Shown in pieces: positions 2,309 to 59,153 of a DNA stretch of 64,000 nucleotides. Below the pieces are notes generated by a model, which was not told the origin of the DNA, ran no database searches, and saw only the letters and a program-made list of their open reading frames with translations. A program made the translations under genes and the position numbers. This DNA comes from a bacterium. Its GTDB lineage: Bacteria > Patescibacteriota > Patescibacteriia > UBA10025. Positions within the stretch are counted from its first letter, which is position 1, and each line of letters starts with the position of its first letter. Location of the stretch: NCBI GenBank assembly GCA_021815445.1, contig JAKAGM010000001.1, forward strand, positions 299,527-363,526. Reading direction: 5' to 3'.

Positions 2309-2344
2309 TTTGATTTTATTGGCTTTTTTTGATTTTCTGTTTAT

Positions 2345-2376
2345 AGTATACCATCAAAACTCCTTTTTGTAAAGGG
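2345..2376 (-). promoter_or_regulatory. Extended -10 promoter candidate (TGgTATACT on minus strand) for the L,D-transpeptidase gene
   Basis: Minus-strand sequence ...ttttgaTGgTATACTataaac about 35 nt upstream of the ATG at 2308. The -35 is weak. Confidence 0.35.
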
Positions 2377-2415
2377 TAGGATGGCTATTCCTCTTGTTGC
2401 TATGACTACAGGAAA

Positions 2416-40566: not shown

Positions 40567-41397
40567 ATGGCCTATCAAGAAGTAACTACGATCAAACCAA
40601 AAAAGGGTTGGGTGGGGGTTAATGTAAAAGAACTATGGCGCTATCGAGAGCTTTTTTTTATTTTTGTATGGCGTGATATTAAAATACGATACAAGCAGAC
40701 GGCAATAGGCGTACTCTGGGCTATCCTGCAGCCATTTTTGTTAATGGTAGTGTTTTCAATCTTTTTTGGCTCATTCGCCAAAATGCCGTCAAACGGGGTC
40801 CCCTACCCTATTTTCGTTTTTTCAGGTCTGCTTTTTTGGAATTATTTTTCTGTTTCACTGACGAATGCAAGCGACTCATTAGTCAGTAATGAGAATATTT
40901 TAAAAAAAATATATTTCCCCCGTTTAATCCTTCCCCTGTCGCCCACGATGACACCTCTCGTTGATTTTGCAATCGCCTTCATTGTGCTCATCGGAATGCT
41001 TTTTTATTATCATTTTACGCCCACGCTCATCGGCATCGTCATATTGCCGCTGCTCCTTTTTACGTCCTTTCTCTCCGCGTCGGGTTTGGGAATGTTTTTA
41101 GCCGCCATAAACGTCAGATACCGCGACATAAGATATGCCCTCCCCTTTTTTATTCAAAGCCTTTTGTTTGTCACTCCGGTAATTTATCCGACAAGCATTG
41201 TTTCTTCGCAATACCAATGGATCCTCAAATTGAACCCAATGACCGGAATCATCGAGGCGGCTAGGGCCGGCATTGTTGGCGGCAAACAAATTGATTTCAC
41301 GTTACTGGCAATTTCTGGGATTATCGCCGCAGCGATTTTTTTGTTTGGAATATTTTATTTTAGGAAAACTGAGCGGATATTCGCTGATGTCGCCTAA
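40567..41397 (+). CDS. wzm: ABC-2 type polysaccharide export permease (Wzm/TagG-like)
   Basis: 276 aa, 6 TM. ABC-2 family pattern (IKIRYKQTAIGVLWAILQPFL). Precedes the ATPase. Confidence 0.85.
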   Translation: MAYQEVTTIKPKKGWVGVNVKELWRYRELFFIFVWRDIKIRYKQTAIGVLWAILQPFLLMVVFSIFFGSFAKMPSNGVPYPIFVFSGLLFWNYFSVSLTNASDSLVSNENILKKIYFPRLILPLSPTMTPLVDFAIAFIVLIGMLFYYHFTPTLIGIVILPLLLFTSFLSASGLGMFLAAINVRYRDIRYALPFFIQSLLFVTPVIYPTSIVSSQYQWILKLNPMTGIIEAARAGIVGGKQIDFTLLAISGIIAAAIFLFGIFYFRKTERIFADVA

Positions 41398-42676
41398 TAC
41401 TATGCAGGACGAAATCATAAAAGTAAACAACATTTCTAAATCCTACACCATTACGCATCGCGAATCTTACGAAACCATACGCGATAAAGTAACTGAACTT
41501 GCGAAAAAGCCGTTTCAAATGTTTGCTGGCCGCACACATACTGAAAAAGAAAAGTTCTGGGCACTGAGAGATGTCCAATTTTCAGTCAAACAGGGCGAGC
41601 GCTTGGGAATCATAGGAAGAAATGGCGCCGGCAAAAGCACACTCTTAAAGATTTTGTCCCAGATTACGTATCCGACCGCCGGCGATGTAATGTTGCGGGG
41701 ACGGGTAGCTAGTCTGCTCGAGGTCGGTACTGGCTTCCACCCCGAGCTGACCGGCAGAGAAAATATATTCCTGAATGGAGCCATATTAGGGATGAAACAA
41801 TCGGAAATAAGAAAAAAATTTGATGAAATAGTCGCGTTTGCTGAGATTGAACAATTTCTTGATACACCCGTTAAACGATATTCATCAGGGATGTACGTGA
41901 GGCTCGCTTTTGCGGTTGCCGCACATTTGGAGCCTGAAATACTAATCATTGACGAAGTCTTAGCCGTCGGCGACACGCAATTCCAGAAAAAATGCCTAGG
42001 TAAAATGGAGGATGTGGCAAAAGGAGGCAGGACAATACTTTTTGTCAGCCACAACATGGGTTCGATACATAAATTGTGCGATTCTTGCATATGGCTTGAC
42101 CGGGGGAAAGTTGTCGCGGCCGGTGATCCGCAAAATGTCATCATGCAGTATTTGGACTACCAAAGTAAGGGACGCGCAATTTTTACGCAGGAACATCAAT
42201 CAAAAAAAAAGATGAACTTAAGAAAAGTATTCCTGTTGGACGGAAGAGCTCAAATCGGCCGTTTAGTCAACTTCGATGACGATGTTTTGATAGCTATTGA
42301 GTATGAGATTAATCAAGAAGTGAATAACTGCCTCGTCTGGTTTACGCTCTCATCAGGCGACGGTATTGAGATTCTCTGCAGTACGGACTATGATCTCCAC
42401 CCCGAGCTCAAAGGCCCAAGATCCAAAGGTTATTACCGTACAACTGCTGTGATTCCAAAAAAGGTCCTCAGTCCAGGCAGCTATAATATCTTAGTCGGAA
42501 TTAATTCGAATAATTTACCCAGTGAAACTTTTGATCGGATTGAGACTATTTCATTTGATGTGGTAGACAACGGCAGTTCACCTAAAGCCATGTTTGGGGA
42601 AATGTCGCGAAGTGGATTTTTACAGCCTTTTTTGGACTGGCAAACGCAAAAAGTTTCTGAAAAAACGGATTCTTAA
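41387..42676 (+). CDS. wzt: ABC transporter ATPase Wzt/TagH-like with C-terminal glycan-binding extension
   Basis: Walker A GRNGAGKST, signature YSSGMYVRLAF, Walker B ILIIDE. ~170-aa C-terminal beta-rich extension, as in O-antigen-binding Wzt. Start chosen at the in-frame ATG 41387 (the ORF-track start 41273 overlaps wzm extensively). Confidence 0.85.
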   Translation: MSPNTMQDEIIKVNNISKSYTITHRESYETIRDKVTELAKKPFQMFAGRTHTEKEKFWALRDVQFSVKQGERLGIIGRNGAGKSTLLKILSQITYPTAGDVMLRGRVASLLEVGTGFHPELTGRENIFLNGAILGMKQSEIRKKFDEIVAFAEIEQFLDTPVKRYSSGMYVRLAFAVAAHLEPEILIIDEVLAVGDTQFQKKCLGKMEDVAKGGRTILFVSHNMGSIHKLCDSCIWLDRGKVVAAGDPQNVIMQYLDYQSKGRAIFTQEHQSKKKMNLRKVFLLDGRAQIGRLVNFDDDVLIAIEYEINQEVNNCLVWFTLSSGDGIEILCSTDYDLHPELKGPRSKGYYRTTAVIPKKVLSPGSYNILVGINSNNLPSETFDRIETISFDVVDNGSSPKAMFGEMSRSGFLQPFLDWQTQKVSEKTDS

Positions 42677-42710
42677 TAATACTACTATCGGCTCAAAACT
42701 AAAAAACACT

Positions 42711-43427
42711 ATGATACTGAATAAGAAAATACTTACAATCATACCTGCTCGCGGAGGATCTAAGCGTTTGCCGGGAAAAAATATCAAGCTTTTGGCCGGC
42801 AAACCGATGATTGCATATGCGATCGAGGCTGCCAGAAAATCGAAATATACTGACAATATAATTGTTACGACGGATGACCAAAAAATTGCTGATATCGCCG
42901 CGAAATATGGAGCTGATGTCCCGTTTATACGGCCGACCGAGTTGGCCACTGACGAAGCCAAGAGCATCGACGTTATCATCCACGCCGTAGATTTCTTCGA
43001 GACACAGAAGGGCTTTTTGATAGATTTGATAATCTTGATTCAACCGACCTCGCCGCTCGTTATTTCGACGGATGTTGACGCGGTCATTGAAAAAATACTC
43101 CAAGCAGAGACAAAAAGTTGTGCAACTGTGTTTAAGGTTACACAGAGACCCGAGTGGATGTACGTAATCCACCAGGGTGAATCGAAGCCCTTTCTGACTG
43201 CGCATAACACTGACCTGCCGAGTCAGGAACTGAAAGAACTCTATTGTTTAAATGGCGCCGTCTATGCCATGCGTCGTGATACGGTCATGAAAGACAGGTT
43301 GGTAATAGACAATAAAAGCTTCTCAACTGTCATTATACCCAGGGAAAGATCGGTGGACGTGGACGAGCTGTATGACTTTGAGCTAGCTGAAGCTATTCTA
43401 AAAAATCATGCCAACAAGACAAGATAA
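42711..43427 (+). CDS. CMP-nonulosonic acid synthetase (acylneuraminate cytidylyltransferase family; NeuA/LegF-like)
   Basis: MILNKKILTIIPARGGSKRLPGKNIKLLAGKPMIAYAIEAA is the CMP-NeuAc/CMP-Kdo synthetase family N-terminus. Start taken at 42711 rather than ORF-track 42594. Confidence 0.85.
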   Translation: MILNKKILTIIPARGGSKRLPGKNIKLLAGKPMIAYAIEAARKSKYTDNIIVTTDDQKIADIAAKYGADVPFIRPTELATDEAKSIDVIIHAVDFFETQKGFLIDLIILIQPTSPLVISTDVDAVIEKILQAETKSCATVFKVTQRPEWMYVIHQGESKPFLTAHNTDLPSQELKELYCLNGAVYAMRRDTVMKDRLVIDNKSFSTVIIPRERSVDVDELYDFELAEAILKNHANKTR

Positions 43428-44481
43428 CCTAAACATTCAGATCGGTGATAAACGGATCAGCTATCATGATGAGGTTTTTGTTATTGCCGAGGCAGGGGTA
43501 AATCATAACGGACGTCTTAATCTGGCATTGAAGCTTGTCGACGCCGCTGCGCAAGCCGGTGCTCATGCGGTAAAATTTCAGACTTTCAAAGCCCACCAGG
43601 TTGTGGTAAAAAAAACGCCGATGGCTGAGTATCAAAAAAAGAACATTGCACGTAAACAAAGCCAACTGGCTATGTTAAAAAAAGTTGAATTACAAGAAGC
43701 ATTCTACGACAAAATAATTAAGCACTGCAAAAGAAGGAAAATTATTTTTCTTTCCACACCGCACGGCGGATTTGAGAGCATTGATTTTCTTCATTCCCTC
43801 GACGTGCCTGCGTATAAATTTGGCTCAGGAGATTTGAATAACACGCCTGTGCTCCAATACGCTGCGCGATTCGGAAAACCCATGATACTCGGTACCGGAA
43901 TGTCCACACTGCAAGAGGTAAAAAACGCAATCGCGGTCATCAGAAAAACCGGAAACAATAAAATAATCGTATTGCATGCAACGACCAATTACCCATGCCC
44001 TCCCCAAGAAGTCAACTTACAATCAATGGTAACAATGATGCACGCTGTACGTTGCCTCGTGGGCTATTCTGACCATACGTTAGGGATTGAGACGTCATCA
44101 GCTGCTGTCGCACTAAAGGCATGCATGATCGAGAAACACTTCACGTTAAACAAAAAATTGCCCGGTCCGGATCATAAATGTTCAGCTGAACCGAAGGAGC
44201 TTCAAACTTTAATAGACCGCATACGATACATTCACACGATATTGGGTTCACCAGTTAAGCAGCCGAACCCTAGCGAACTGAGAATGTTAAAGACTGTTCG
44301 AAAAAGCATTGTCACGTTATCTGAAATAAAAAAAGATGAGTTTTTTACACCAAAAAACTTAGGGATTAAGAGGCCTGGGACGGGTCTGGATCCAAAATAT
44401 TATTACAGGATCATCGGCAAAAAAGCATTACAGAACATTCGCCCAGATGTTCTGCTGACAAAAAAACATTATGCAGAGTAA
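43408..44481 (+). CDS. neuB: Nonulosonic acid synthase (NeuB/LegI family, C-terminal SAF domain)
   Basis: 357 aa. VIAEAGVNHNG...AGAHAVKFQTFKA is the NeuB TIM-barrel signature. SAF-like C-terminus. Confidence 0.9.
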   Translation: MPTRQDNLNIQIGDKRISYHDEVFVIAEAGVNHNGRLNLALKLVDAAAQAGAHAVKFQTFKAHQVVVKKTPMAEYQKKNIARKQSQLAMLKKVELQEAFYDKIIKHCKRRKIIFLSTPHGGFESIDFLHSLDVPAYKFGSGDLNNTPVLQYAARFGKPMILGTGMSTLQEVKNAIAVIRKTGNNKIIVLHATTNYPCPPQEVNLQSMVTMMHAVRCLVGYSDHTLGIETSSAAVALKACMIEKHFTLNKKLPGPDHKCSAEPKELQTLIDRIRYIHTILGSPVKQPNPSELRMLKTVRKSIVTLSEIKKDEFFTPKNLGIKRPGTGLDPKYYYRIIGKKALQNIRPDVLLTKKHYAE

Positions 44482-45628
44482 AAAGAAAAAAGTAGCATAC
44501 ATTACCGGTAATCGCGCCGATTTCGGATTAATGACACCGGTATTGCTGGCGATGAGGAAAAGCAAAAAGTTGTCACTTACGGTATATGCAACCGGCATGC
44601 ATCTCATGCCGGAATTTGGGCGCACTCTGAAAGAAGTAAAAAAGATATTTCCTGACGTGAAAGTGATCAGCGCCATTTTCAAATCAGACGGCAATAAAGG
44701 GATGGCAAGTTTTTCCTCAGCATACATTAAACGTCTGGTGGAGATGTTTACCAAAGACCGACCGGACTTTGTTATTACGTTGGGTGATCGAGTTGAGATG
44801 CTCTGTACGGCGCTTACCTGTCTTTACATGCATATCCCGAGCGGTCAGCTGCACGGCGGCGAAAAGACTTCCACAGTTGATGAAATTGCGCGCCATACAA
44901 TTACCAAACTTTCCAATCTGCATTTCCCGGCAACGCGTGTATCAGCCCAGAGAATCGAAAAAATGGGCGAAGAAAAGTGGCGCATACACATAGTTGGCGC
45001 CCCTGCGCTTGATATGATATTACACGGCAATTTGCCGAGCAAAAGGGAGGTTTACCGGTTTCTCGATATCAGGCCGTCGCTTCCATATATCCTAGTTACC
45101 CAGCATCCCGTTAGCCAAGAATGGACTGAATCCGGGAGACAAATGAGAGAAACGCTGCGCGCCGTCAAACACTTCGGCATACCTGTTGTAGTTACATACC
45201 CCAACGCAGATGCCGGTGGAAGAGTAATGATAAGGGAAATTAATAAAGAGGAGGGAAACTCATTATTCAGGATCAAGCCGAGCATCCCTTATGCATATTT
45301 CCTGGCAATTGAAAAATATGCGGCAGTCTGGGTTGGGAACAGCAGCGGGGCAATGATTGAGTCATCCTCTTTCCATACTCCGGTCGTCAATGTGGGCGAC
45401 CGTCAAAAAGGCAGAGAACGAGGTTTGAATGTTATTGACAGCCCTCACATACATACACGAATAGAAAAAGCCATCCGGAAATCACTGTCTGACAAAAAAT
45501 ATCGTAAACGACTTCAAAAGATTAAGAACCCGTGGGGTGACGGAAAAACTGGGATGAGGGTCGTAAAAATTCTAGAAAAAACTGATTTCAATACACAATT
45601 GCTCAACAAGCATTTAACTTATGACTAA
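44471..45628 (+). CDS. neuC: Hydrolysing UDP/GDP-N-acetylhexosamine 2-epimerase (NeuC/LegG-like)
   Basis: 385 aa. VAYITGNRADFGLMTPVL ... HGGE ... HPVSQEW ... VGNSSG matches the NeuC-type hydrolysing 2-epimerase pattern. Confidence 0.85.
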   Translation: MQSKKKKVAYITGNRADFGLMTPVLLAMRKSKKLSLTVYATGMHLMPEFGRTLKEVKKIFPDVKVISAIFKSDGNKGMASFSSAYIKRLVEMFTKDRPDFVITLGDRVEMLCTALTCLYMHIPSGQLHGGEKTSTVDEIARHTITKLSNLHFPATRVSAQRIEKMGEEKWRIHIVGAPALDMILHGNLPSKREVYRFLDIRPSLPYILVTQHPVSQEWTESGRQMRETLRAVKHFGIPVVVTYPNADAGGRVMIREINKEEGNSLFRIKPSIPYAYFLAIEKYAAVWVGNSSGAMIESSSFHTPVVNVGDRQKGRERGLNVIDSPHIHTRIEKAIRKSLSDKKYRKRLQKIKNPWGDGKTGMRVVKILEKTDFNTQLLNKHLTYD

Positions 45629-46226
45629 AAAAGTAATCATCGTAGGTGCCGGAGAAAATGGATATGTTATAGTGAACATATTGAAAAGAAAGTACAGTAT
45701 CGCCGGTTTTCTTGATGATAGAAAGAGAGGAAAACACATTCTTGGTAAAATTAATCAGTTCTCTAAATATAAAAAAAGTCATCTTTTTTTTGTAAATATT
45801 GGGAATAACAAGGTGAGAAAGAATATTTATCTGCTGATGAAGTCCGCCGGAGCAAAATTCGTTAATGCGATTCATGTCTTGTCTTTTGTAGAAAAAACTG
45901 CTAAAATTGGTGAAAATGTTTTTATCGGAGCTATGACCTACATAAATGTAAACGCCTCCATTGGCGACAATTCTTTCATTAATAACGGCTGCATTATCGA
46001 GCACGATAATGAGATTTCCGCGCACACACATGTTGCACCTGGCGTGATAACGGGAGGACGTGTCGTCATTGGTACGGGTTCGTTTATAGGACTTGGCAGC
46101 CGCATTAATGACCACACTAAGATAGGAAATAATGTAACCATCGGATCTGGTTCAGTCGTCATCGGCCCGATTGCGAGCAATACCACTGCGGTGGGTATTC
46201 CCGCTCATATAATTAAAAAATTATGA
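45621..46226 (+). CDS. Left-handed beta-helix sugar N-acetyltransferase (NeuD/PglD/LegH-like)
   Basis: 201 aa. N-terminal Rossmann-like IIVGAGENG and C-terminal hexapeptide repeats (IGDNSFINNGCIIEHDN..., IGTGSFIGLGSRIN...). Confidence 0.8.
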   Translation: MTKKVIIVGAGENGYVIVNILKRKYSIAGFLDDRKRGKHILGKINQFSKYKKSHLFFVNIGNNKVRKNIYLLMKSAGAKFVNAIHVLSFVEKTAKIGENVFIGAMTYINVNASIGDNSFINNGCIIEHDNEISAHTHVAPGVITGGRVVIGTGSFIGLGSRINDHTKIGNNVTIGSGSVVIGPIASNTTAVGIPAHIIKKL

Positions 46227-47335
46227 AAAATTTTCCCGTTGCACGACCTTTTATTGATCGTAAAGACATTGATGGAGTAGTCGGCGTGCTGAAGTCCGGA
46301 TTGCTTTCTTTCGGGCCCAAGTATCTCCAATTTGAAAAACAAATTGCGAAATATACTGGGACCAGGTACGCATGCGCCGTTTCGAATGGCACCTGCGGCC
46401 TGCATTTGGCGGTCAAAGCTCTTAACCTTCACCCGGGCGATGAAGTAATCACGTCACCATTTTCCTTCATATCCTCTTCAAACTGCCTTCTCTTTGAGGG
46501 TGTCGTGCCAAGATTTATTGATATCCAGGAAAATACGTTTAACATGGATCCGAAATATCTCGATAAAAGCGTAACAAAAAAAACCAAAGCAATCCTCGCG
46601 GTACATATATTCGGACAGTCAGCTGATATGACTGAAATTATGGCATTTGCTAGACGGCATCATTTGCCGGTCATCGAGGATTCTTGTGAAAGCCTGGGAT
46701 CAAGATATATGGGAAAAATGACCGGGTCTATAGGTGATGTAGGTGTGTACGCCTTTTATCCCAATAAACAAATGACTACGGGCGAAGGAGGGATTGTTGT
46801 AACAAAATCAAAAAAAATTCGTGACATTTGCGTGAGTTTAAGAAACCAGGGCCGGAACAACCGCAATGATTGGCTGGTTCATGAAAGAGTCGGATACAAT
46901 TACCGGATGGATGAAATGAGCGCATCGTTAGGAATCACCCAACTTCACAAATTAAATTGGATGATAAATGAAAAAAGGAAGATCGCTTCATGGTACTCAT
47001 CTGAATTGGATGGACATAGATCGATCCGCGTACCGCGCATCGGCGTTAATCGAACGCATTCTTGGTTTGTGTACGTGATCCGTGTTACTAACGGCTCTCG
47101 CGATAAGATTATAAAAAAACTTGAACGAGAAAATATTTTCACGAAACCCTATCTTCCGGTGATACATCTCCAGCCATTTATGAAACAAATGTTCCATTAC
47201 AAAAAGGGGGCTTTTCCGATCGCGGAAAAAATCTCTTCTCAAACACTCGCGCTCCCCTTTTACATCGGGTTGACACGAGAAGATGTCGCATATATATCAC
47301 GTAAATTAATCTCTGTGATTAAGAATTATGATTAA
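46223..47335 (+). CDS. DegT/DnrJ/EryC1-type PLP aminotransferase (LegC/PglE-like)
   Basis: 370 aa. GPKYLQFEKQIAKYTGTRYACAVSNGTCGLHLA and a conserved lysine region. Typical nucleotide-sugar 4-aminotransferase. Confidence 0.9.
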   Translation: MKNFPVARPFIDRKDIDGVVGVLKSGLLSFGPKYLQFEKQIAKYTGTRYACAVSNGTCGLHLAVKALNLHPGDEVITSPFSFISSSNCLLFEGVVPRFIDIQENTFNMDPKYLDKSVTKKTKAILAVHIFGQSADMTEIMAFARRHHLPVIEDSCESLGSRYMGKMTGSIGDVGVYAFYPNKQMTTGEGGIVVTKSKKIRDICVSLRNQGRNNRNDWLVHERVGYNYRMDEMSASLGITQLHKLNWMINEKRKIASWYSSELDGHRSIRVPRIGVNRTHSWFVYVIRVTNGSRDKIIKKLERENIFTKPYLPVIHLQPFMKQMFHYKKGAFPIAEKISSQTLALPFYIGLTREDVAYISRKLISVIKNYD

Positions 47336-48323
47336 ATATTTTCAGAATAAAATAATACTGGTAACTGGAGGGACTGGTTCAATAGGCTCCGAGCTGGTCA
47401 AACAGCTTATTACATATAAGCCGAAACAGTTACGTATTTTCTCGCGCGACGAAAGCAAACAGTACTACCTTATGGAGCAAATTGACCATCCGAGTAACGT
47501 CAGGTTTTTTATCGGCGATGTGAGGGACCAGGAACGTCTGGATTTGGCATTCCAAAATGTAGACGTGGTATTCCACGCCGCAGCGATGAAGCACGTTCCC
47601 TTGTGCGAGTACAACCCATTTGAAGCGGTAAAAACCAATATCGTAGGATCTCAAAATGTCATTAACGCCGCTCTAAAACATAATGTTGACAAGGTTGTCG
47701 CGATTTCAACCGATAAAGCCGCAAACCCGAGTAATGTCATGGGAACCTCAAAGCTCATGATGGAAAAACTTATAATAAATGCAAATTTTTACCGCGGCTG
47801 GGCTAGAACAAAATTTTCTTGCGTACGCTTCGGGAATGTCGCCTGGGCAAGAGGGTCAGTTCTTCCGCTATGGAAAAAACAGGCAGAAAGAGGGAATTCC
47901 ATTAAAATTACCAACCATGACATGACACGTTTTTTTATGTCTATTCCTCAGGCCAGGGATTTAGTTTTAAAAACTGCAAGCTTGGCATACGGCGGGGAGA
48001 TTTTCATTTTAAAGATGTCATCAATAAGAATCATCGATTTGGCAAAGATTTTTGTCAAAAAATATTATCCCGATAGGAAAATAAGAATCGTCAAAACAGG
48101 AAATCGACCCGGAGAAAAGATGCACGAAGATTTGTACGTTCCCAATATTACACCGAAGGCAATATTTGAAAATGACGAAATTCTCATAATAATTCCCGAG
48201 CTTGAAATATATGACCTTAAACAGCCCGAAAGAGAGTACAAAGGCTTTAGGAAAAAGCTCAGTTATGCGGATTATTGTTCCGATAAATCAATCAATGTAA
48301 GTAGGGTGAGAAATGTTATATAA
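47328..48323 (+). CDS. UDP/GDP-GlcNAc 4,6-dehydratase, short FlaA1/PseB/LegB type
   Basis: 331 aa. IILVTGGTGSIGSELVKQL...AAMKHVPLCEYNP...TDKAANPSNVMGTSK is the short-form polysaccharide biosynthesis (CapD-like) dehydratase pattern. Confidence 0.85.
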   Translation: MIKYFQNKIILVTGGTGSIGSELVKQLITYKPKQLRIFSRDESKQYYLMEQIDHPSNVRFFIGDVRDQERLDLAFQNVDVVFHAAAMKHVPLCEYNPFEAVKTNIVGSQNVINAALKHNVDKVVAISTDKAANPSNVMGTSKLMMEKLIINANFYRGWARTKFSCVRFGNVAWARGSVLPLWKKQAERGNSIKITNHDMTRFFMSIPQARDLVLKTASLAYGGEIFILKMSSIRIIDLAKIFVKKYYPDRKIRIVKTGNRPGEKMHEDLYVPNITPKAIFENDEILIIIPELEIYDLKQPEREYKGFRKKLSYADYCSDKSINVSRVRNVI

Positions 48324-48339: not shown

Positions 48340-49209
48340 ATGAAAAAAGGGGTCAACATTAGGATAATCCCGAGGCTTGACATTAAGGGTCCCAACCTGG
48401 TCAAAGGAATTCATTTGGAAGGTTTACGCGTATTGGGTAAACCGGAGGATTTCGCCAAGCGTTACTATGAAATGGGCGCCGACGAACTTCTCTATGTCGA
48501 CGTCGTCGCAAGTTTGTACAACAGAAACAGTTTGCACGACATCATCTCTAGAACTGCTAAGGAGATATTCATACCCATGACAGTTGGCGGAGGCATACGT
48601 ACAATTGATGACATAAAATCTGTATTGCGGGCGGGTGCGGACAAGGTTGCCCTAAATACCGCAGCAATAAAGAATCCTGAGATCATACGGGAAGCCGCAA
48701 CCATCTTTGGCTCGTCAACAGTCACCATCGCAATAGAAGCGATAAAACAGCCAAACGGCGACTACCTCGCCTACACTGATAACGGTCGTGAATTCACTGG
48801 GGTGGAAGTGCTCGACTGGGCAAAAAAAATTGAATCACTCGGGGCCGGAGAAATCTTGCTCACATCGATAGACAGGGAGGGTACGGGATTGGGTTTCGAT
48901 AAAGAATTAACTAAGCGCATTGCTGCTGCGGTTTCGATACCTGTAGTAGCATGCGGAGGTCCCGGAAAACTTGAGCATATTTATGAGGTTATACATGAAT
49001 CACAGGCTGATGCGGTGGCGATAGCCTCGATGCTGCACTATGATCTCATTGGCCAGGGTAACGCCTCAGCGAAGTATGAAGGCGAAGGAAATACGGAATT
49101 CCTAAAGAAAAAAACAGGCACATTCGGCAAAATTACCAACACGAACATTTCCGCTATAAAAAAATATTTATTTGAACACGACATTCCTTGTCGGTACAGA
49201 AATGAATAA
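48340..49209 (+). CDS. HisF-like cyclase subunit (WbuY-type, glycan amidotransfer)
   Basis: 289 aa. IIPRLDIKGPNLVKG...ADELLYVDV...PMTVGGGIRT is the imidazole-glycerol-phosphate synthase HisF fold. Located in the glycan locus rather than a his operon. Confidence 0.85.
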   Translation: MKKGVNIRIIPRLDIKGPNLVKGIHLEGLRVLGKPEDFAKRYYEMGADELLYVDVVASLYNRNSLHDIISRTAKEIFIPMTVGGGIRTIDDIKSVLRAGADKVALNTAAIKNPEIIREAATIFGSSTVTIAIEAIKQPNGDYLAYTDNGREFTGVEVLDWAKKIESLGAGEILLTSIDREGTGLGFDKELTKRIAAAVSIPVVACGGPGKLEHIYEVIHESQADAVAIASMLHYDLIGQGNASAKYEGEGNTEFLKKKTGTFGKITNTNISAIKKYLFEHDIPCRYRNE

Positions 49210-49885
49210 AACAAACCCAAGGATAGCAATTATTGATTATAAATTGAGCAACCTTTTCAGCGTCAAACATGCATGCGAGTTCGTCGGCATGAATGCTGAA
49301 ATAACATCCTCGCGCGATGATGTTTTAAATGCAGACGGTGCGATTCTGCCAGGTGTAGGGGCGTTCGGCGATGCAATGAAAAATTTAGAAAATTTAAACC
49401 TTGTCAGCGCAATTAAAGAGTTCGTCAAATCCGGAAAACCGCTCATGGGCATTTGCCTCGGACTTCAGTTGCTTTTTTCTGAAAGCGAAGAATTTGGCCC
49501 TCATAAAGGCCTCGGCATTATCCCCGGTAAAGTTGTAAAATTTCCTTCCATAAATTCGGATGGGCGCGTCATAAAGGTTCCTCAAATAGGGTGGAATACA
49601 ATTCATACGCCGGACTCAGATCCTCTCAAATGGCAGAATACTCCCCTCTTAGGAATTGCCGACGGCGAATTTATGTATTTTGTTCATTCCTACTATATTA
49701 TCCCTGACAATACGAGGGATGTGCTGACGACTACGACATACGACACAATCACGTATGCGTCAAGCATACTGCATGATAATGTCATTGCGTTCCAATTCCA
49801 TCCCGAAAAAAGCGGGATAGAGGGCGTCAAAATATATAAGAACTGGGCCTTACACCTAAAAAAATTAAATAACCCGAATATATGA
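49172..49885 (+). CDS. HisH-like class I glutamine amidotransferase (WbuX-type)
   Basis: RIAIIDYKLSNLFSV ... GICLGLQLL (catalytic Cys) ... QFHPEKS. An alternative start at 49202 (MNKTNP) avoids the overlap with the HisF-like gene. Confidence 0.85.
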   Translation: MNTTFLVGTEMNKTNPRIAIIDYKLSNLFSVKHACEFVGMNAEITSSRDDVLNADGAILPGVGAFGDAMKNLENLNLVSAIKEFVKSGKPLMGICLGLQLLFSESEEFGPHKGLGIIPGKVVKFPSINSDGRVIKVPQIGWNTIHTPDSDPLKWQNTPLLGIADGEFMYFVHSYYIIPDNTRDVLTTTTYDTITYASSILHDNVIAFQFHPEKSGIEGVKIYKNWALHLKKLNNPNI

Positions 49886-51102
49886 CTTTAAAGACCATGT
49901 ATGATCTCCCAGAAAAAGTGATTTTTTGCAAACGGTGTGTTATTTCCAATCAACGACCGGCTTCAACCCCGGAGTTCAGGCACACAAAAACTGCAAAAAA
50001 AGTTACGATTAATATAGATTCACAGGGAGTGTGTGACGCATGCCGGCAGGCTGAGGTTAAGGAAAAAATTGACTGGAGCAAACGTGAAAAGGAACTCGTC
50101 GTTTTGCTTGATAAATACCGTAAAAATGACGGAAGTTATGATTGCATCGTGCCCGGAAGTGGCGGCAAGGACAGCGCCTTTCAGGCGCACACTTTAAAAT
50201 ACAAATATGGCATGCATCCATTAACGGTAACTTGGCCTCCGATCCTCTACACTGACTATGGTTATCAAAATTTTAAAAATTGGATTGAAATTGGCGGTTT
50301 TGATAATATCACATTCAAGCAAAACGGACGGGTGATGAAACTGCTTACGAGACTGGCAATCGAAAACCTTTTTCACCCTTTTCAGACATTCATTCTTGGG
50401 CAGAAAAATCTCGGACCAAAAATCGCTTTAAAGTACAAAATTCCCCTGATTTTTTACGGAGAAAATGAAGCGGAATACGGAAACCCAATTGCCGAAAACG
50501 CAACATCCCTTCGCGATAAATCTTACTATGCAATGGAAAATCTTGACGAAGTATACCTCGGGGGCGTTTCGATTCCGGAACTTATAAAAAAATATAACAT
50601 CCAGCTAGCGGACCTTATGGCTTTTCTCCCCCCACGGGCAGAAGATTTAGACTCCTCAAAAATTGAAGTGCACTATTTAGGATATTACCTCAAATGGACG
50701 CCGCAAGAAGTTTATTATTACGCGGTTGAAAATACCGGTTTTAAGGCACGCCCTTTTCGCACACAGGGCACCTATAGCAAATATAATAGCATCGACGATA
50801 AAATCGACGATCTGCATTATTACACGACTCACATCAAATTCGGGATTGGTCGGGCGACATACGACGCTTCGCAGGAAATAAGGAATAGACACCTAACACG
50901 CGAAGACGGCAAAGCGCTCGTCAAACGTTTTGACGGCGAATTTCCAGATCGATATTTTGACGAAATAATGAACTATATAGGCATGGAGCCGAAACATTTC
51001 TTCGAATTATGTGATAAATTCAGACCGTCTCATTTGTGGAAAAAAATTGATGGTGAGTGGAAATTGCGTCACACTGTGAATAGTGACGGCACAGACGATT
51101 AA
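49882..51102 (+). CDS. N-acetyl sugar amidotransferase, PP-loop ATPase (PseA/WbuZ/WbpG-like)
   Basis: 406 aa. N-terminal Cys cluster (CKRC...C..C) and PP-loop VPGSGGKDS. Family partner of the HisH/HisF-like pair in acetamidino-sugar formation. Confidence 0.8.
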   Translation: MTLKTMYDLPEKVIFCKRCVISNQRPASTPEFRHTKTAKKVTINIDSQGVCDACRQAEVKEKIDWSKREKELVVLLDKYRKNDGSYDCIVPGSGGKDSAFQAHTLKYKYGMHPLTVTWPPILYTDYGYQNFKNWIEIGGFDNITFKQNGRVMKLLTRLAIENLFHPFQTFILGQKNLGPKIALKYKIPLIFYGENEAEYGNPIAENATSLRDKSYYAMENLDEVYLGGVSIPELIKKYNIQLADLMAFLPPRAEDLDSSKIEVHYLGYYLKWTPQEVYYYAVENTGFKARPFRTQGTYSKYNSIDDKIDDLHYYTTHIKFGIGRATYDASQEIRNRHLTREDGKALVKRFDGEFPDRYFDEIMNYIGMEPKHFFELCDKFRPSHLWKKIDGEWKLRHTVNSDGTDD

Positions 51103-53077: not shown

Positions 53078-53829
53078 TGGCAGCTGATCTTGGTTGTGGA
53101 GTAAATAAAACGAGGGATACCGTGGGCATCGACCGATTCCCGCTTGAGGGTGTCGATGTTGTTGTCGACCTCAATAAATTCCCATACCCCTTTGCCGATA
53201 ACTCGTTTGACGTCTTCTACCTCAATGACATCATCGAACATTTACCCGACACCATTGGAGTTATGGAGGAATTATACAGATTATGTAAACCAAACGCTCA
53301 CATCTACATACGAGTTATAAATTGGAACAGTAAATTAAACGCCGAGGACCCGACGCATGTAAAAGCATTCACTGAACATACATTTGATTTCTTTGGAAAA
53401 TACGCATTACGTTCCTACTATAGTAAGGCGAGATTTGAAGTTGTATCCTGTGAGTACCAATTCAACGCAAAAGTGGAAAAATACATAAAAAACCGTCGCC
53501 TCATGAAATTCCTAGGTACTTATTTGAATAACGTTTTAGAGGGTCTCAATTTTGACCTGCGGTGTGTAAAAAATACAACATCCCCCAGCGAACATGAACC
53601 TCGTCAGGATCGGGATATTTTTTCGCTTATCAGGTGTCCGCATTGCATCGGTGATAAAGAAACAAAGGATAACTCCAGTTTAACTATTTACAACACCGAC
53701 TGGCTTCTGTGCAGCAACCCTCATTGCAAAAGAAAATACCCGATAGTAAATGGGACCCCCCTGCTCACCTTAAAGGATGGTAATAAACGGATATCCGTAC
53801 AGCCGGAATCACTTGCAACAATAACCTAA
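53074..53829 (+). CDS. Class I SAM-dependent methyltransferase with C-terminal Trm112-like zinc ribbon
   Basis: DLGCGVNKT motif I, DVFYLNDIIEHL motif II-III. C-terminal CPHC...CSNPHCKRKYPIVNGTPLL resembles the Trm112 zinc-ribbon (YPI.dGIP.L) element. Confidence 0.8.
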   Translation: MMAADLGCGVNKTRDTVGIDRFPLEGVDVVVDLNKFPYPFADNSFDVFYLNDIIEHLPDTIGVMEELYRLCKPNAHIYIRVINWNSKLNAEDPTHVKAFTEHTFDFFGKYALRSYYSKARFEVVSCEYQFNAKVEKYIKNRRLMKFLGTYLNNVLEGLNFDLRCVKNTTSPSEHEPRQDRDIFSLIRCPHCIGDKETKDNSSLTIYNTDWLLCSNPHCKRKYPIVNGTPLLTLKDGNKRISVQPESLATIT

Positions 53830-54801: not shown

Positions 54802-56244
54802 ATGAAAAAAAAAGTTTTAGTGATTATTCATTCAAACACCTATTTTAATGAGTTGTTTAAATTAGCCAGAATGCTTTTACACTCCGAGGCGTATGAACCG
54901 ATTTTGTTATTTCCCGTAAACTACTCCAGAAAAGACGATAATGTTGCGACTTGCTTGCATAATGGATTAACTTGTCTCGATGAATTAGGTACTCAGCTGA
55001 AACACGCAAGTGTTAAAAATACCGGCGTAACAGCGTCAACGTTTCCTTTACATAATGTGACTGCCTCTTTGCGTACCTGGGTGCGAAACATGCTCAAAAT
55101 CATCCAAATTGACTTCATTTTCGGGACTTTGTACATGATTCTATTTCTGAAAAGACGAATCTCATTCGCTCAAGAGGTCATTAAAAAGCACAATTGTGAA
55201 CTCATAGTCGTGGGTGGCGATCTTGTACATTATGATTCTTCCGCATTTATCCGCGCGGGGCATGAATTGGGCGTTAAGTCCGTCATCATACCTTGCACGA
55301 TGTCAAACGCCCTTGAGATGGCGGAATCATACTACGGTGACAAGCGCTATTCGATGTCAACTCTTGGTAACTGGCTTGCGGGTAAGCTGATGCCTGAGTG
55401 GACCTATATACATAAGGGAAAAAAAATGCTTCGGACTCCGGCCGACCGTGCATTTGCTATGTATTTTCTCCGCCTCTCCCCCCCATTTCCGTGGATAAAT
55501 AACAGCTCCTTTGCAGATGCCATTGCGGCAGAGAGCGAGATGATGAGGCTGTATTACACTCGAGAAGGGATACCAAACGCTCAGATAACAATTACAGGAT
55601 CCCCCTCTCATGATATTTTGGCGAGTGCCGAAAAAAAGCTTGATACCGAGAAACATACTATTTTCCGGGAGTTGAATCTCAACCCGGGAAAACCGGTCAT
55701 TTTATCCCCCCTGGTGCCAAATCAACACTACCTCGCCGGGGGAAGACCTGAATGCGAATTTCGCACTTATGAGGAACTAATCGAATTCTGGGTACATGCC
55801 ATTTCGAAGATGAGCTCGTCTCATAATATTTTAATAAATCTCCACCCTTCAATGAAAATTGATGATTATAGGAAATTTGAGAAAAATGGAGTTACAATTT
55901 CCGACGCTGACATAACATCACTCATACCTTACTGTGATTTCTTTGTAGCAAGCGTTTCTTCAGTCATTCGGTGGGCCATTGCGTGCGGCAAGCCTGTCCT
56001 TAATTATGACATATATAAATTCCGATACACTGATTACCTCTACCAACCAGCGGTGATCACTACTGAGAAAAAAGGGGATTTTCTGAATTTCTTGGAAAGG
56101 TTGAGCCATGACGCCGCATATTTACGCGAGTTATCGCTGAAGCAAAAAATTTTTTCGAGGAAATGGGGTATCCTTGATGGCAAAGCGCACGTCAGAATCA
56201 TCCAGTTGTTTGATTTGCTCACCAAATCGGGAGTACATGCCTAG
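54802..56244 (+). CDS. Large GT-B-like transferase, tandem paralog 1 (Capsule_synth/KpsS-KpsC-like candidate)
   Basis: 480 aa. N-terminus KVLVIIHSNTYFNELFKLARML. C-terminal FFVASVSSVIRWAIACGKPVLNYDIYKF resembles the ...TINSgvGlEAL..GKPV..G...Y motif of beta-Kdo/sialyl-type Capsule_synth transferases. Confidence 0.45.
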   Translation: MKKKVLVIIHSNTYFNELFKLARMLLHSEAYEPILLFPVNYSRKDDNVATCLHNGLTCLDELGTQLKHASVKNTGVTASTFPLHNVTASLRTWVRNMLKIIQIDFIFGTLYMILFLKRRISFAQEVIKKHNCELIVVGGDLVHYDSSAFIRAGHELGVKSVIIPCTMSNALEMAESYYGDKRYSMSTLGNWLAGKLMPEWTYIHKGKKMLRTPADRAFAMYFLRLSPPFPWINNSSFADAIAAESEMMRLYYTREGIPNAQITITGSPSHDILASAEKKLDTEKHTIFRELNLNPGKPVILSPLVPNQHYLAGGRPECEFRTYEELIEFWVHAISKMSSSHNILINLHPSMKIDDYRKFEKNGVTISDADITSLIPYCDFFVASVSSVIRWAIACGKPVLNYDIYKFRYTDYLYQPAVITTEKKGDFLNFLERLSHDAAYLRELSLKQKIFSRKWGILDGKAHVRIIQLFDLLTKSGVHA

Positions 56245-57595
56245 ATTCATACTCTTTGTCGTAAATACAAACACATATTTCTCCGTATTATTCAATTTAG
56301 CCAGGCGGTTTAAGGCGTCTTCTTTCGCCATCCATATCGTGTTTGATGGAGGCTACCCTACCCTTCAACACGATATCGAACGCTGCCGAACAGCAAGACT
56401 AGATTTTTCCATTAGAAACGAGTACGGTTTTTCGAATAATTATTTCATCCGCGTCCTTCAGTTAATCTTATCGAGGGGGTCCCTTGGCAAATTCGTTAAA
56501 TCCTATCTCCAGACGCTCTATGATATCCGATCAATTAAGCAGCTACTGCAACAAAAACAGCCGGATTTTATCGCCCTGGCGGCTGATAACGTCGCATATT
56601 CCACCGCGTTATATATTAAGCTCGGACATACCCTCGGCATAAAAACAGTCGTTTTTCCGCAGTGGTTAGCTAATGCGAAAGAGCCCGTGGAATTTATCAT
56701 TAATGACGATGATTATGAAGTGAAATCTGTTTACTCAAAACTTATTGCCAGGTTCTTTCCCAAGTGGACTTTTTCTGTGAATGGAAAAACATTGCTTCGT
56801 CTGCCTGCTCAAAAAATACTTCTCAAGGAGCTATTTGGCATCTCGCCCAAACTCCCATGGATACTGCATAGCGGAGATGCCGATCGTATCGCTTTAGAAA
56901 GCCGGGCGATGAAAGCATTTTCCAGGAGAATTGGCTTGCCGGATGAACAAACCATTGTAACAGGTTCATTGGAGCTAGACATGTTGTGCGATATAAAGAA
57001 ACACTCTGCAATTTTGCGCCATAAACTCTACGCTAGATACGGATTTGCAAAATCACGCCCCCTTGTGATTACCGCCCTGCCGCCTGATTTCTACACACAT
57101 ACCGGAGGGAGGCCTCAAAGCGAATTTAAAAATTACCGAGAGCTTTTGAATAAGTGGATTGATGCTTTCAAAGTCAATAACCCGGCGAATTTACTGGTTT
57201 GCGTTCATCCCTCTGTAGATAAAAAAAACTTTTCACTGGCTGAGACTGCATACATGAAGCTCTGCAGGGAAGATTTAATTAACGTTTTACCACTTGGGGA
57301 CTTGTTCGTAGCAAGTGTTTCCGCTACTATTCAGTGGGCAATCTGCGTAAATATCCCGACTATAAACTATGACGTTTACCAATATGACTACGATGAATAT
57401 AAGCATGTTGCGGGCGTTATTACTGTTCGCGATTACCACAATTTTAAAACGACGCTGAAACATCTGACACAGCGGCCGGCTGAAATCGAGGAGCTGAGGA
57501 AAAAGCAAAGCAAAATCTCAGACATGTGGGGAACTCTCGATGGTCATTCATTCGACCGTATACAATCATTAATCGATTCTCTCGATAAAGCATGA
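56237..57595 (+). CDS. Large GT-B-like transferase, tandem paralog 2
   Basis: Aligns with the preceding gene at both ends (FILFVVNTNTYFSVLFNLARRF; LFVASVSATIQWAICVNIPTINYDVYQYDY; C-terminal WGTLDGHSFDRIQSLID vs WGILDGKAHVRIIQLFD). Start at ATG 56237 (8-nt overlap) preferred over ORF-track 56174. Confidence 0.45.
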   Translation: MPRFILFVVNTNTYFSVLFNLARRFKASSFAIHIVFDGGYPTLQHDIERCRTARLDFSIRNEYGFSNNYFIRVLQLILSRGSLGKFVKSYLQTLYDIRSIKQLLQQKQPDFIALAADNVAYSTALYIKLGHTLGIKTVVFPQWLANAKEPVEFIINDDDYEVKSVYSKLIARFFPKWTFSVNGKTLLRLPAQKILLKELFGISPKLPWILHSGDADRIALESRAMKAFSRRIGLPDEQTIVTGSLELDMLCDIKKHSAILRHKLYARYGFAKSRPLVITALPPDFYTHTGGRPQSEFKNYRELLNKWIDAFKVNNPANLLVCVHPSVDKKNFSLAETAYMKLCREDLINVLPLGDLFVASVSATIQWAICVNIPTINYDVYQYDYDEYKHVAGVITVRDYHNFKTTLKHLTQRPAEIEELRKKQSKISDMWGTLDGHSFDRIQSLIDSLDKA

Positions 57596-58473
57596 TCTCC
57601 AAAATCGCAAAATTTCTTAAAGAGTTGGCGCTTCTGGTCGAATCAGTTGTTAAAATTCTTTTTTTCTCAAATTTTCAACCCCCGATCAGGAACCTGCGCA
57701 TAGACTCTTCCAAGCCCTCGGTTATACTTGGAAACGGCCCGTCCCTGACTACAACGCTGTCTGACTACCCAGCATTTTTTGTTAATAAAACAAATATTTG
57801 CGTGAATGATTTTGCTGATTCAGACTATTTCGAAAAAATTAAACCCACCATATACGTTTTTACCGACCCGACATACTGGATGACATCAGCGTCGGCGAGA
57901 ATTCAAAACCAACTCGAGCTGTACAAGCAAAAGATGGTAAATAACGTTACCTGGAAAATGACGATTATCTTGCCTTTCGCGGCAAAAAAATGGAATTATT
58001 TCATTGATGTCCCAAAAAAAAATACTAATATATCGATTTGCTACATTAATACGACCGAGGTCAATTGTTTCAAGCGTCTGCGCTTTTATTTGTATAGTAG
58101 AAACTTAGCTATTCCACCAATGCAAAATGTCATTGTTGCAGCTCTCTTTATATCCGTAAACGTGGGAATAAAAACGGCCTACCTTGTCGGGGCTGATCAT
58201 TCATGGCATGAAAGCTTTTTTGTAGGAAATGATAATATCCTCTATTTAAAAAACAAGCGTTTCCAAGATAGAGAAGAGGCGACGTATTCTCCGTTTTATC
58301 AGGATCCCGGTGAAACACTTCCCTATCGAATGGATAATCTACTTTTCGCCCTGGCGAGAATGTTTCAAGGCTACCGCGAACTTGAAGAGTATGCGAAACT
58401 ACATCATGCGAAAATATTTAATGCAAGCACGAAGTCATATATTGACGCCTTTGAAAGATATAAAATATCATAA
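57592..58473 (+). CDS. GT42/DUF115 (MAF_flag10)-like CMP-nonulosonate transferase
   Basis: VILGNGPSL ... ICVNDFADSDYFEK ... VAALFISVNVGIKTAYLVGADHSW parallels Campylobacter Cst-II/Maf motifs IIAGNGPSL ... FRCNQFYFED ... CAVAIALGYKEIYLSGIDFY. ATGA overlap with the upstream gene. Confidence 0.65.
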   Translation: MISKIAKFLKELALLVESVVKILFFSNFQPPIRNLRIDSSKPSVILGNGPSLTTTLSDYPAFFVNKTNICVNDFADSDYFEKIKPTIYVFTDPTYWMTSASARIQNQLELYKQKMVNNVTWKMTIILPFAAKKWNYFIDVPKKNTNISICYINTTEVNCFKRLRFYLYSRNLAIPPMQNVIVAALFISVNVGIKTAYLVGADHSWHESFFVGNDNILYLKNKRFQDREEATYSPFYQDPGETLPYRMDNLLFALARMFQGYRELEEYAKLHHAKIFNASTKSYIDAFERYKIS

Positions 58474-58481: not shown

Positions 58482-59153
58482 ATGAACAACATCTTGCTCA
58501 ACCCACTGACGATATATATAAAGAGGCTGCTGGTTGCATTAAGCTTGCAGACGGTTAATTATAAAAAACACCTGTCCATTGGCAATATGAGTGTGGTAAA
58601 AAATTGCCATTTTGGAACATACAATACTATATATGAGAATGCACGCCTCATCGACGTTACCGTTGGCGATTTTACCTACTTTTCCAGCAATTCGTGGGTT
58701 AGCAACGCCGTTATTGGTAAATTCTGCTCAATCGGTCCCGGAGTCATGTGCGGATTAGGCATACATCCAACTTCATTCGTATCGACCCATCCAGCTTTTT
58801 ACTCGACTCAAAAACAAGCTCAAGTAACATTTGCAACCAAGAATCTTTTTGATGAACATAAAATGACAAACATCGGCAATGATGTCTGGATTGGTGCTCG
58901 TGCAATCATACTTGACGGGGTCACAATCGGTGACGGAGCAATCATTGCCGCAGGTGCAGTAGTGACAAAAAATGTTGCTCCCTATGCGATAATGGGTGGG
59001 GTTCCTGCGACTATCATTAAATACCGATTTGGAGACGACGAAATTAAGTCGTTATTGCGACTACAGTGGTGGAATAGAGACCCTCAATGGTTACAACTTC
59101 ACTCAGAACAGTTCACAAAAGTATCAGAATTCCTCAGGTCTAGGTCCGGATAA
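58482..59153 (+). CDS. Hexapeptide-repeat O-acetyltransferase (XAT/CatB-Vat-like)
   Basis: 223 aa. VWIGARAIILDGVTIGDGAIIAAGAVVTKNVAPYAIMGGVPATIIKYRF is the left-handed beta-helix xenobiotic acetyltransferase C-terminus. Confidence 0.85.
   Translation: MNNILLNPLTIYIKRLLVALSLQTVNYKKHLSIGNMSVVKNCHFGTYNTIYENARLIDVTVGDFTYFSSNSWVSNAVIGKFCSIGPGVMCGLGIHPTSFVSTHPAFYSTQKQAQVTFATKNLFDEHKMTNIGNDVWIGARAIILDGVTIGDGAIIAAGAVVTKNVAPYAIMGGVPATIIKYRFGDDEIKSLLRLQWWNRDPQWLQLHSEQFTKVSEFLRSRSG

Follow-up and report, generated by a model that had tools for sequence, protein, structure and literature searches.

A stand-alone DUF115/MptE-like protein, encoded at positions 57592..58473 on the plus strand of a 64,000-nucleotide stretch of a Patescibacteria genome (contig JAKAGM010000001.1 of assembly GCA_021815445.1; the whole stretch is referred to as the window), is a candidate glycosyltransferase (GT) for cytidine monophosphate (CMP)-activated legionaminate. 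This assignment draws on the open reading frame (ORF), a PF01973 match, an AlphaFold2 (AF2) model, Foldseek searches and hhalign profile alignment, which together suggest that the protein most likely transfers legionaminic acid (Leg) from CMP-legionaminate to a lipid-linked glycan, with a probability of about 0.62. The original prediction, made from the DNA letters alone, had called the protein a GT42/Maf (DUF115)-like transferase. The kinship in this description holds, in that the protein belongs to the DUF115/PF01973 superfamily, is homologous to Cst-I and Cst-II in its nucleotide-binding half and has a predicted fold like those of Maf and the sialyltransferases; membership of either family does not. 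As far as sequence comparison can tell, the protein would work like a GT42 or Maf enzyme while being a member of neither.

Sequence family, nucleotide-binding core and predicted fold

The target ORF runs from ATG through stop and encodes 293 amino acids (aa), and the strand opposite is closed by many stops. Its translation contains all the peptides quoted in the original prediction, namely VILGNGPSL (residues 44-52), CVNDF (70-74), DYFE (78-81) and GIKTAYLVGADHSW (192-205). The ATG shares 4 bp with the stop of the upstream gene (gcATGAtc), and a gap of 8 bp lies between the target stop and the start of the next gene, showing that the target is an internal gene of a long plus-strand operon, translationally coupled to its neighbours. 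The G+C content of the gene is 38.7%, versus 42.6% for the gene cluster and 45% for the window; low G+C is a frequent bias in surface-polysaccharide genes.

The only Pfam match of the target is PF01973 (MptE-like; formerly DUF115/MAF_flag10), with an E value of 1.6e-5 over profile positions 12-169 of 171. The same profile is matched by all 45 relatives in the family alignment (33-67% identity; best E value 7.8e-12), and most relatives carry a precomputed PF01973 label. Membership of the target in the PF01973 superfamily is convincing on the strength of these profile matches, although the target alone falls under the curated cut-off. The original prediction had proposed a check against the MAF_flag10 and GT42 models, of which the former is matched, below threshold, and the latter is not: PF06002 (CST-I, the GT42 model) gives no match to the target up to an E value of 10 and is reached by only two of the 45 relatives, at 0.07. 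PF00777, the GT29 profile, is weakly matched by one of the 45 (E value 0.023), and neither an NCBIfam search nor a single-sequence PDB search with the target returned a match.

A word-indexed protein search found 416 relatives at E <=1e-3; among the 120 of them that were listed, nearly all are 270-320 aa long and nearly all are unnamed, with a few called 'DUF115 domain-containing' or 'MptE-like'. An exhaustive profile search, which covered 1.84 billion 50%-identity representatives, returned 5,292 clusters at E <=1e-3 and 1,126 at E <=1e-30, and the best 150 profile matches listed are almost all ~290 aa long. By this measure, the family appears to be large and widespread, comprising at least 1,126 clusters at 50% identity.

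N48, P50, P85, W121, G200, D202, S204, N215, Y267, N277, I284 and D285 are invariant in the 45 relatives. The motif residues G47, N48, G49, P50, S51, L52, C70, N72, F74, G200, A201, D202, H203, S204 and W205 are each invariant or at least 90% conserved, and the motifs of the target are therefore not a product of chance. N48, N72, D202, H203, S204 and W205 remain at 92-98% in a wider check across 247 relatives. The family consensus contains the motifs ILGNGPSL, CVNxFA, KPxYYVxDPxYW, QNVLVAA, GADHSWHE and NASxKSYIDAFER.

In the target, all on the plus strand, the VILGNGPSL segment (57721..57747) is a glycine-rich nucleotide-binding loop that pairs with G8-N-G-P-S-L13 of Cst-II, with N48 and P50 invariant and G47, G49, S51 and L52 conserved to at least 96%. 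It is followed by CVNDF (57799..57813; C70 93%, N72 96%, F74 96%) and by FTDP (residues 90-93, 57859..57870), whose D92 occurs in 87-91% of relatives. QNV (residues 178-180, 58123..58131; N179 and V180 both 93%) stands opposite T131-S132-G133 of Cst-II by spacing only, the printed hhalign alignment being gapped here; N179 lies 23 residues before D202, compared with 22 from S132 to D154 in Cst-II. The family signature GADHSWHE (residues 200-207, 58189..58212) has G200 and D202 invariant among the 45 relatives, and H203, S204 and W205 at 93%, 92% and 96% among the 247. In the C-terminal motif NASTKSYIDAFER (residues 277-289, 58420..58458), N277 and D285 are found in 246 of the 247 proteins, and position 289 is R in 87% and K in 12%.

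When the family profile was searched against all PDB sequences, the sole meaningful match was Cst-I (2p2v), with an E value of 0.005 over 172 profile positions (32-203). The alignment of the target family with Cst-II by hhalign (using the sequence of PDB 1ro7_A, 259 of 259 residues identical) gave a probability of 95.9% and an E value of 5.5e-9, placing target residues 41-206 on Cst-II residues 2-158. This alignment pairs G47-N-G-P-S51 with G8-N-G-P-S12, N72 with N31, D92 with N51, G200-A-D202 with G152-I-D154, H203 with F155 and S204 with Y156. The order of the target motifs is thus colinear with the GNGPSL / RCNQF / FYNP / GIDFY series of Cst-II, bearing out the motif order claimed in the original prediction. 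The likeness covers the N-terminal nucleotide-binding half, with a GNGPSL loop, a C/R-x-N-x-F motif, a (D/N)-P after strand 3 and a G-x-D that ends the last core strand. The target thus carries a core homologous to the CMP-binding core of GT42, with counterparts of the GNGPS loop, N31, N51 and G-I-D154. The two proteins would also have a CMP-nonulosonate donor (presumed for the target) and a glycan acceptor in common.

However, the likeness does not extend to the known catalytic residues. The confident stretch of the alignment stops at Cst-II residue 158, ahead of Tyr162 and His188. Under relaxed (-mact 0.05) or global (-glob) settings, the order of secondary structure is colinear to the C-terminus and the catalytic His188 falls opposite Asp248 (58333..58335), in a region of low confidence. 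This column is occupied in the 247 proteins by H (50%), S (9%), D (8.5%), A (8%), Y (7%) and also Gly; with His in only half of the relatives, it does not look like a conserved catalytic residue. Tyr156 is replaced by Ser204, and Tyr162, outside the confident alignment, has no conserved Tyr counterpart in the family. The alignment to the Cst-II catalytic residues, proposed as a check in the original prediction, thus spoke against shared catalytic residues. The target also differs from Cst-II and Cst-I in having an extra N-terminal helix of ~40 residues and a longer beta-rich insert after GADHSW.

The AF2 model, built on the 45-sequence alignment, has a predicted local distance difference test score (pLDDT) of 95.1 and a predicted template modelling score (pTM) of 0.92, and forms a single compact domain. 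The first Foldseek match in the PDB is Magnetospirillum Maf (5mu5), with an E value of 1.3e-5 and a template modelling (TM) score of 0.48 normalised to the query, followed in order by human ST8SiaIII, M. jannaschii MptE HPPK (8sd5), ST6GalNAc2 and ST3Gal-I. The GT29 sialyltransferases (ST8SiaIII 5bo8, ST6GalNAc2 6apl, ST3Gal-I 2wml) are recurrent matches, with E values from 5.6e-4 to 3.6e-2; however, no sialylmotifs were identified in the target and the TM scores are ~0.35, a likeness at the superfamily level only. These comparisons suggest that, within the sialyltransferase-like modified GT-A superfamily, the target represents a clade of its own, whose nearest neighbour is GT42 by sequence profile and Maf by predicted structure. 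The two neighbours have been linked before, the MAF_flag10 domain being described as 'structurally related to family GT42' in the Maf literature (bioRxiv 10.1101/2020.06.03.131540).

Maf proteins with a PF01973 domain are demonstrated Neu5Ac/Kdo transferases, and their activity requires two acidic residues and a Ser (E324/D415 in MmMaf; D272/S334/D357 in CbMaf) (bioRxiv 10.1101/2020.06.03.131540). D92, N179 and D202 of the target would match these essential residues by spacing, not by alignment, because no Maf sequence can be aligned: the family profile fails to find 5mu5 by sequence up to an E value of 10.

Genomic setting of the family and of the locus

Scanning genomes for the GADHSW pattern yielded 260 confirmed loci. 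For 80 of these, which come from Bacteroidota, Ignavibacteriota, Proteobacteria, Desulfuromonadota, Omnitrophota, Myxococcota and Patescibacteria, neighbouring genes were identified by tblastn with the window proteins. A NeuB homologue lies within 10 kb of the DUF115-like gene in 47 of the 80 loci, on the same strand in 41 of these 47, and in 28 of the 40 loci (70%) with at least 8 kb on both sides. Around a gene picked at random, a span of 20 kb would capture a NeuB locus, of which a genome has one or two, in well under 1% of cases, and the association of the family with NeuB is therefore very strong. The 10-kb count is a lower bound, since NeuB lies 14 kb away in the window itself. NeuA is found in 34 of the 80 loci (as the immediate neighbour in nine), DegT in 43 and a dehydratase in 37. 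A NeuC homologue is present in only 15, suggesting that most family members accompany pathways of the pseudaminic acid (Pse) type and a minority those of the Leg/Neu type.

Individual loci illustrate this range. In Spirosoma montaniterrae, the homologue heads a PseB-PseC-PseF-(PseG)-PseH-PseI operon with a Wzx-like flippase at its end, and locus L087 is a Leg-type operon closed by the homologue, whose start overlaps the end of the CTP_transf_3 gene. Locus L088 has the order Wzt, NeuB-like, SIS/phosphatase and CTP_transf_3, then the homologue, a hexapeptide acetyltransferase, GT2 genes and Wzy_C. At positions 1748-4408 of this contig (JGI 3300048038), the homologue stands with a short NeuB-like synthase, a SIS-plus-phosphatase protein, CTP_transf_3 and Aminotran_3. 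These genes look as though they make another ulosonic acid, Kdo-like or aminated, which hints at a donor range of the family beyond Leg and Pse. Members of the family consistently accompany a CMP-ulosonate pathway and stand among genes that assemble lipid-linked glycans (Wzx/Wzy or Wzm/Wzt), not among flagellar genes.

The gene directly downstream of the target (58482..59153, plus strand) encodes an XAT-class hexapeptide acetyltransferase, with a Hexapep match and best PDB matches to CatB/Vat at an E value of 7e-32. Homologues of it (40-66% identity) are found in 18 of the 80 loci. All but two of these 18, from at least six phylum-level groups, have it on the same strand as the DUF115-like gene and 0-125 bp downstream (16 loci). 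This conserved two-gene module suggests that O-acetylation, possibly of the transferred nonulosonate, is coupled to transfer.

Within the window, the plus strand from 39.5 to 59.2 kb carries in order an epimerase, Wzm, Wzt, CTP_transf_3, NeuB/LegI-type, NeuC-type, PglD/NeuD-family, DegT and Polysacc_synt_2 genes, then a HisF-like WbuZ, a HisH-like amidotransferase, WbuX, two GFO/IDH/MocA genes, a methyltransferase, a weak GT2, two GT-B paralogues, the target and the hexapeptide acetyltransferase; further GT2 and GT4 genes lie on the opposite strand. The presumed donor would be made by a NeuA/LegF-like CMP-nonulosonate synthetase (42594..43427; CTP_transf_3 at an E value of 2.4e-31, PseF-like below threshold), following a NeuB/LegI-type synthase and a NeuC/LegG-type hydrolysing 2-epimerase (43408..45628; TIGR03569 at 425.5 bits against a threshold of 399.65, TIGR03568 at 361.7 against 235.9). 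A PglD/NeuD-family N-acetyltransferase (above cut-off), a DegT aminotransferase and a 4,6-dehydratase, assigned to the uridine diphosphate (UDP)-diNAcBac route, occupy 45621..48323. A dehydratase, an aminotransferase and a PglD-like acetyltransferase yield UDP-diNAcBac, and with NeuC-, NeuB- and NeuA-like enzymes next they make up the UDP-route legionaminic acid pathway.

These genes are joined by a WbuZ/WbuY/WbuX-like acetamidino-forming trio (48340..51102), with WbuX at 363 bits (TIGR03573, threshold 203), WbuZ at 272 bits (below threshold) and a GATase. WbuXYZ-type enzymes make acetamidino groups, and a Leg5Am7Ac-type sugar occurs in the Legionella O-antigen. Judged by its gene content, the locus encodes a complete UDP-route Leg pathway with WbuXYZ and Wzm/Wzt, and its likely product is a Leg5Am7Ac-type sugar. 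The legionaminic-type sugar named in the original prediction is therefore a reasonable expectation. In the searchable literature, no mention was found of a complete legionaminic-acid-type pathway in Patescibacteria or the candidate phyla radiation (CPR).

The Wzm/Wzt ABC exporter (40567..42676, plus strand) has ABC2_membrane and ABC_tran matches and a Wzt_C domain at 38.1 bits, above the gathering score of 30.4. Wzt_C in other systems reads a chain-terminating cap. A methyltransferase (53074-53829, plus strand) lies in the same operon as this Wzt, and the combination suggests that the polymer made at the locus is capped and exported by the ABC transporter.

Among related loci, those closest to that of the window and sharing its gene order come from Patescibacteria metagenome-assembled genomes, at 73% (L002) and 45% (L016) identity. 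The rest of the window is ordinary chromosome, with SecA, murA/B/C/D/G, mraY, ftsW, type IV pilus genes and CTP synthase, and no flagellar genes are found among its annotated ORFs. These features, with genes for peptidoglycan and pili but none for flagella, give the window the appearance of a Patescibacteria/CPR chromosome. Pfam has no match, at E values up to 1e-5, for two large, adjacent minus-strand ORFs (32465-34231 and 34283-35974; 587 and 562 aa). A 515-aa minus-strand ORF at 60009-61556, also without a Pfam match, is kept (at 515-641 aa) between GT2 and GT4 genes in the related Patescibacteria loci L084-L086 and may be a membrane component of glycan assembly.

Competing explanations

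Several results weigh against the assignment of the target as a legionaminate transferase. Its PF01973 score of 25.2 bits is below the gathering score of 34.6, the Foldseek TM scores are modest (at most 0.48), and Cst-II is not among the top 50 Foldseek matches of the model. PF01973 also holds a pyrophosphokinase, MptE, so the fold alone is no proof of glycosyl transfer, and the known GT42 catalytic residues Tyr156, Tyr162 and His188 are not conserved in the family. No NeuA or NeuB lies within 10 kb in 12 of the 40 fully flanked loci, although NeuB is 14 kb off in the window itself. The searchable literature holds no experimentally tested member of the ~290-aa family and, with subscription-only papers and CAZy outside its reach, no work on PF01973 proteins of this short, stand-alone kind as glycan nonulosonate (NulO) transferases. 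Finally, two further NulO-transferase candidates, orf480 and orf452, lie directly upstream and compete for the role of 'the' transferase.

These two genes supply the strongest of the rival explanations, in which orf480 and orf452 are the real legionaminic acid transferases or polymerases and the DUF115-like protein has the narrower role of adding a single initiating or capping NulO, or uses a different sugar; this is considered unlikely, at about one chance in four. The orf480 gene (54802..56244, plus strand) has a weak Glyphos_transf (TagF-like) match that passes narrowly (23.2 bits against a threshold of 22.1), and orf452 (56237..57595, plus strand), identified by gene call and AF2, is a GT-B-fold protein with an HP motif that could be a rival or a co-acting NulO transferase. 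The two are full-length paralogues (30% identity, E value 1e-77) from a family of 116 proteins, none of them named, in which E149, D248, H324-P325 and S362 are invariant. The orf452 model is confident (pLDDT 92.1) but generic GT-B: Foldseek returned GT1 enzymes and UDP-GlcNAc 2-epimerases at E values of ~1e-11 and no sialyltransferase among the top 50, and the family profile matches the 2-epimerase-type CapG in the PDB (E value 4e-4).

The rival is favoured by a precedent in Tannerella forsythia, whose ~445-aa TagB-like GT-B proteins Tanf_01245 and TFUB4_00887 carry the bacterial sialyltransferase HP motif and are genetically implicated as transferases of Pse/Leg derivatives (PMC5420450). They are the only glycan-directed transferases of such derivatives with genetic evidence. 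Like the target, they are proposed glycan-directed NulO transferases encoded beside a CMP-NulO pathway; however, their GT-B fold is unrelated to that of the target, and it is orf480 and orf452 that they resemble. A further dedicated non-sialic NulO transferase acting on a glycan is KpsS1 of Acinetobacter baumannii (GT118; as cited in PMC12887879), which differs from the target in that its fold is KpsS/KpsC-related and its mechanism is retaining, by double displacement; no relationship between the two was detected in sequence or fold. Other phyla also have NulO/WbuXYZ/Wzt loci (L089, L090) in which members of the orf452 family stand without any DUF115-like gene within 10 kb. The orf480 and orf452 proteins may be a second kind of NulO transferase or polymerase.

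Conversely, the DUF115-like protein is mostly found with NulO genes but without the GT-B proteins (orf452-type genes are present in only two of the 80 loci), and so does not depend on them. The window thus joins two independent NulO-associated modules, one consisting of the GFO, GFO, methyltransferase, weak GT2, orf480 and orf452 genes, and the other of the DUF115-like and acetyltransferase genes. The two tandem GFO/IDH/MocA oxidoreductases (51083-53077, plus strand) recur beside orf452-type genes in the distant loci L084, L086, L089 and L090, and the orf452 family co-occurs with such oxidoreductases and with a 316-aa weak GT2 (54% identical in L089). An attractive division of labour would have the GT-B pair polymerise, the DUF115-like enzyme add a single initiating or capping NulO and Wzt_C read the cap. 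Ulosonic-acid terminators have a precedent in WbbB, which caps chains with beta-Kdo (mentioned in PMC12887879), and the Wzt encoded here bears Wzt_C. Such a capping role is a refinement of the preferred explanation, that of a glycan-directed legionaminate transferase, and not a contradiction of it. The target is the only protein of the cluster with a specific link to CMP-nonulosonate enzymes, as the 'most direct candidate' of the original prediction should be; the superlative is weakened by the two upstream GT-B paralogues, which resemble the Tannerella-type transferases and are NulO-associated independently.

It is improbable, by a wide measure, that the target is a Maf-type protein O-glycosyltransferase placing a nonulosonate on Ser/Thr of a surface protein such as a type IV pilin or an S-layer protein. 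Maf is the closest solved structure, the PF01973 superfamily and the linkage to Pse/Leg biosynthesis are common to the target and to Mafs (5mu5; CbMaf, GkMaf, Shewanella Maf-1/2), conserved acidic residues of the target lie at the spacing of essential Maf residues, and the window contains type IV pilus genes. However, characterised Mafs are at least ~440 aa long and need a tetratricopeptide repeat (TPR)/flagellin-binding domain or a GlfM partner (bioRxiv 10.1101/2023.12.03.569772). Mafs of 440-820 aa, with flagellin-binding domains or partners, belong to flagellar glycosylation islands, whereas the target, with its one domain, belongs to a polysaccharide/ABC-exporter locus, and a Wzm/Wzt, Wzx, Wzy or sugar GT context is found in every locus inspected. 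The sequence profile, moreover, stops short of 5mu5. As a Maf flagellin glycosyltransferase in particular, the target is ruled out by its 293-aa single domain and by the lack of flagellar genes in the window.

Slightly less probable still is that the target modifies a sugar or cofactor as a nucleotide-dependent kinase or pyrophosphokinase resembling MptE, or as a nucleotide-binding enzyme of another type, and is not a glycosyltransferase. PF01973 is named after the archaeal 6-hydroxymethylpterin diphosphokinase, whose structure (8sd5) has a related fold and is the third Foldseek match (E value 8.5e-4) and, at 18%, the one most identical to the target in sequence among those listed. The enzyme belongs to the pterin pathway, in contrast to the nonulosonate/polysaccharide context of the target, which recurs in every locus inspected; no pterin or folate genes lie nearby, and nothing here points to adenosine triphosphate (ATP) or pterin chemistry. 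The cross-phylum linkage to CMP-sugar synthetase and NeuB genes, and a sequence profile that reaches Cst-I/Cst-II and not MptE, argue for a transferase instead.

A bona fide GT42 sialyltransferase, that is, a Cst-II orthologue with the same catalytic machinery, would explain the GNGPSL loop with its colinear motifs, the hhalign probability and the sole PDB sequence match to Cst-I, but is already contradicted by the failure of PF06002, the alignment that ends short of Tyr162 and His188 and the absence of Cst-II from the best Foldseek matches, and has next to no probability. Membership of CAZy GT42 is ruled out for the target by the missing PF06002 match, the Tyr156-to-Ser204 replacement and the variable His188 column.

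Proposed reaction and implications

In the preferred explanation, the target would be a cytoplasmic single-domain glycosyltransferase with the modified GT-A sialyltransferase-like fold common to GT42, GT29 and the Maf domain. Its donor would be a CMP-activated legionaminic acid derivative from the locus itself, probably of the Leg5Am7Ac type, with the CMP held by the GNGPS loop, N72, D92, N179 and the G200-A-D202 strand end, as in Cst-II. The sugar would be joined to a hydroxyl of a lipid-linked glycan built at the inner membrane face, probably with inversion, and the glycan would afterwards be exported by Wzm/Wzt. The chemistry may proceed via the D202-H203-S204-W205 cluster and/or N215, Y267, N277 and D285, and not through Cst-II-type His188 and Tyr156/Tyr162; Asp248 may stand in for the Cst-II His, albeit in a variable column. 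The co-inherited XAT-class acetyltransferase probably O-acetylates the product. Of this picture, the homology of the nucleotide-binding core, the predicted fold, the residue conservation, the operon position and the gene linkage are observed, whereas the donor, acceptor, stereochemistry, catalytic residues and division of labour with the two GT-B paralogues are deduced from them.

A wider and more tentative proposal, held at somewhat less than even odds, is that the ~290-aa 'GADHSW' proteins constitute an unrecognised family of glycan-directed transferases of Leg, Pse and possibly other ulosonic acids. The family would be intermediate between GT42 and Maf, with a catalytic constellation of its own (D202-H203-S204-W205 together with N277/D285) and one subclade paired with an XAT-type O-acetyltransferase. 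The member described here would add a NulO, possibly a cap read by the C-terminal domain of Wzt, to a polymer built with two further GT-B enzymes.

The candidate itself will be no surprise to a glycobiologist, a DUF115 protein beside NulO genes being the expected type of transferase. Dedicated Leg/Pse transferases are scarce. The papers found cover only Maf, which acts on proteins, FlmG, the TagB-like enzymes of Tannerella, for which the evidence is genetic, and KpsS1/GT118. According to a 2018 paper, no legionaminic acid transferase had been identified in any organism that uses legionaminic acid for protein glycosylation (PMC6137143). If the assignment is true, a compact, soluble-looking single-domain family with more than 1,000 diverse members, each genomically paired with a defined NulO pathway, would be a ready source of biocatalysts for Leg/Pse glycoconjugates serving antibodies, vaccines and probes, and NulO-containing surface glycans would become predictable from genomes. 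The family thus appears to be a large, untapped and testable set of enzymes, and the locus suggests that Patescibacteria, whose cell envelope is poorly known, bear sialic-acid-like surface polymers.

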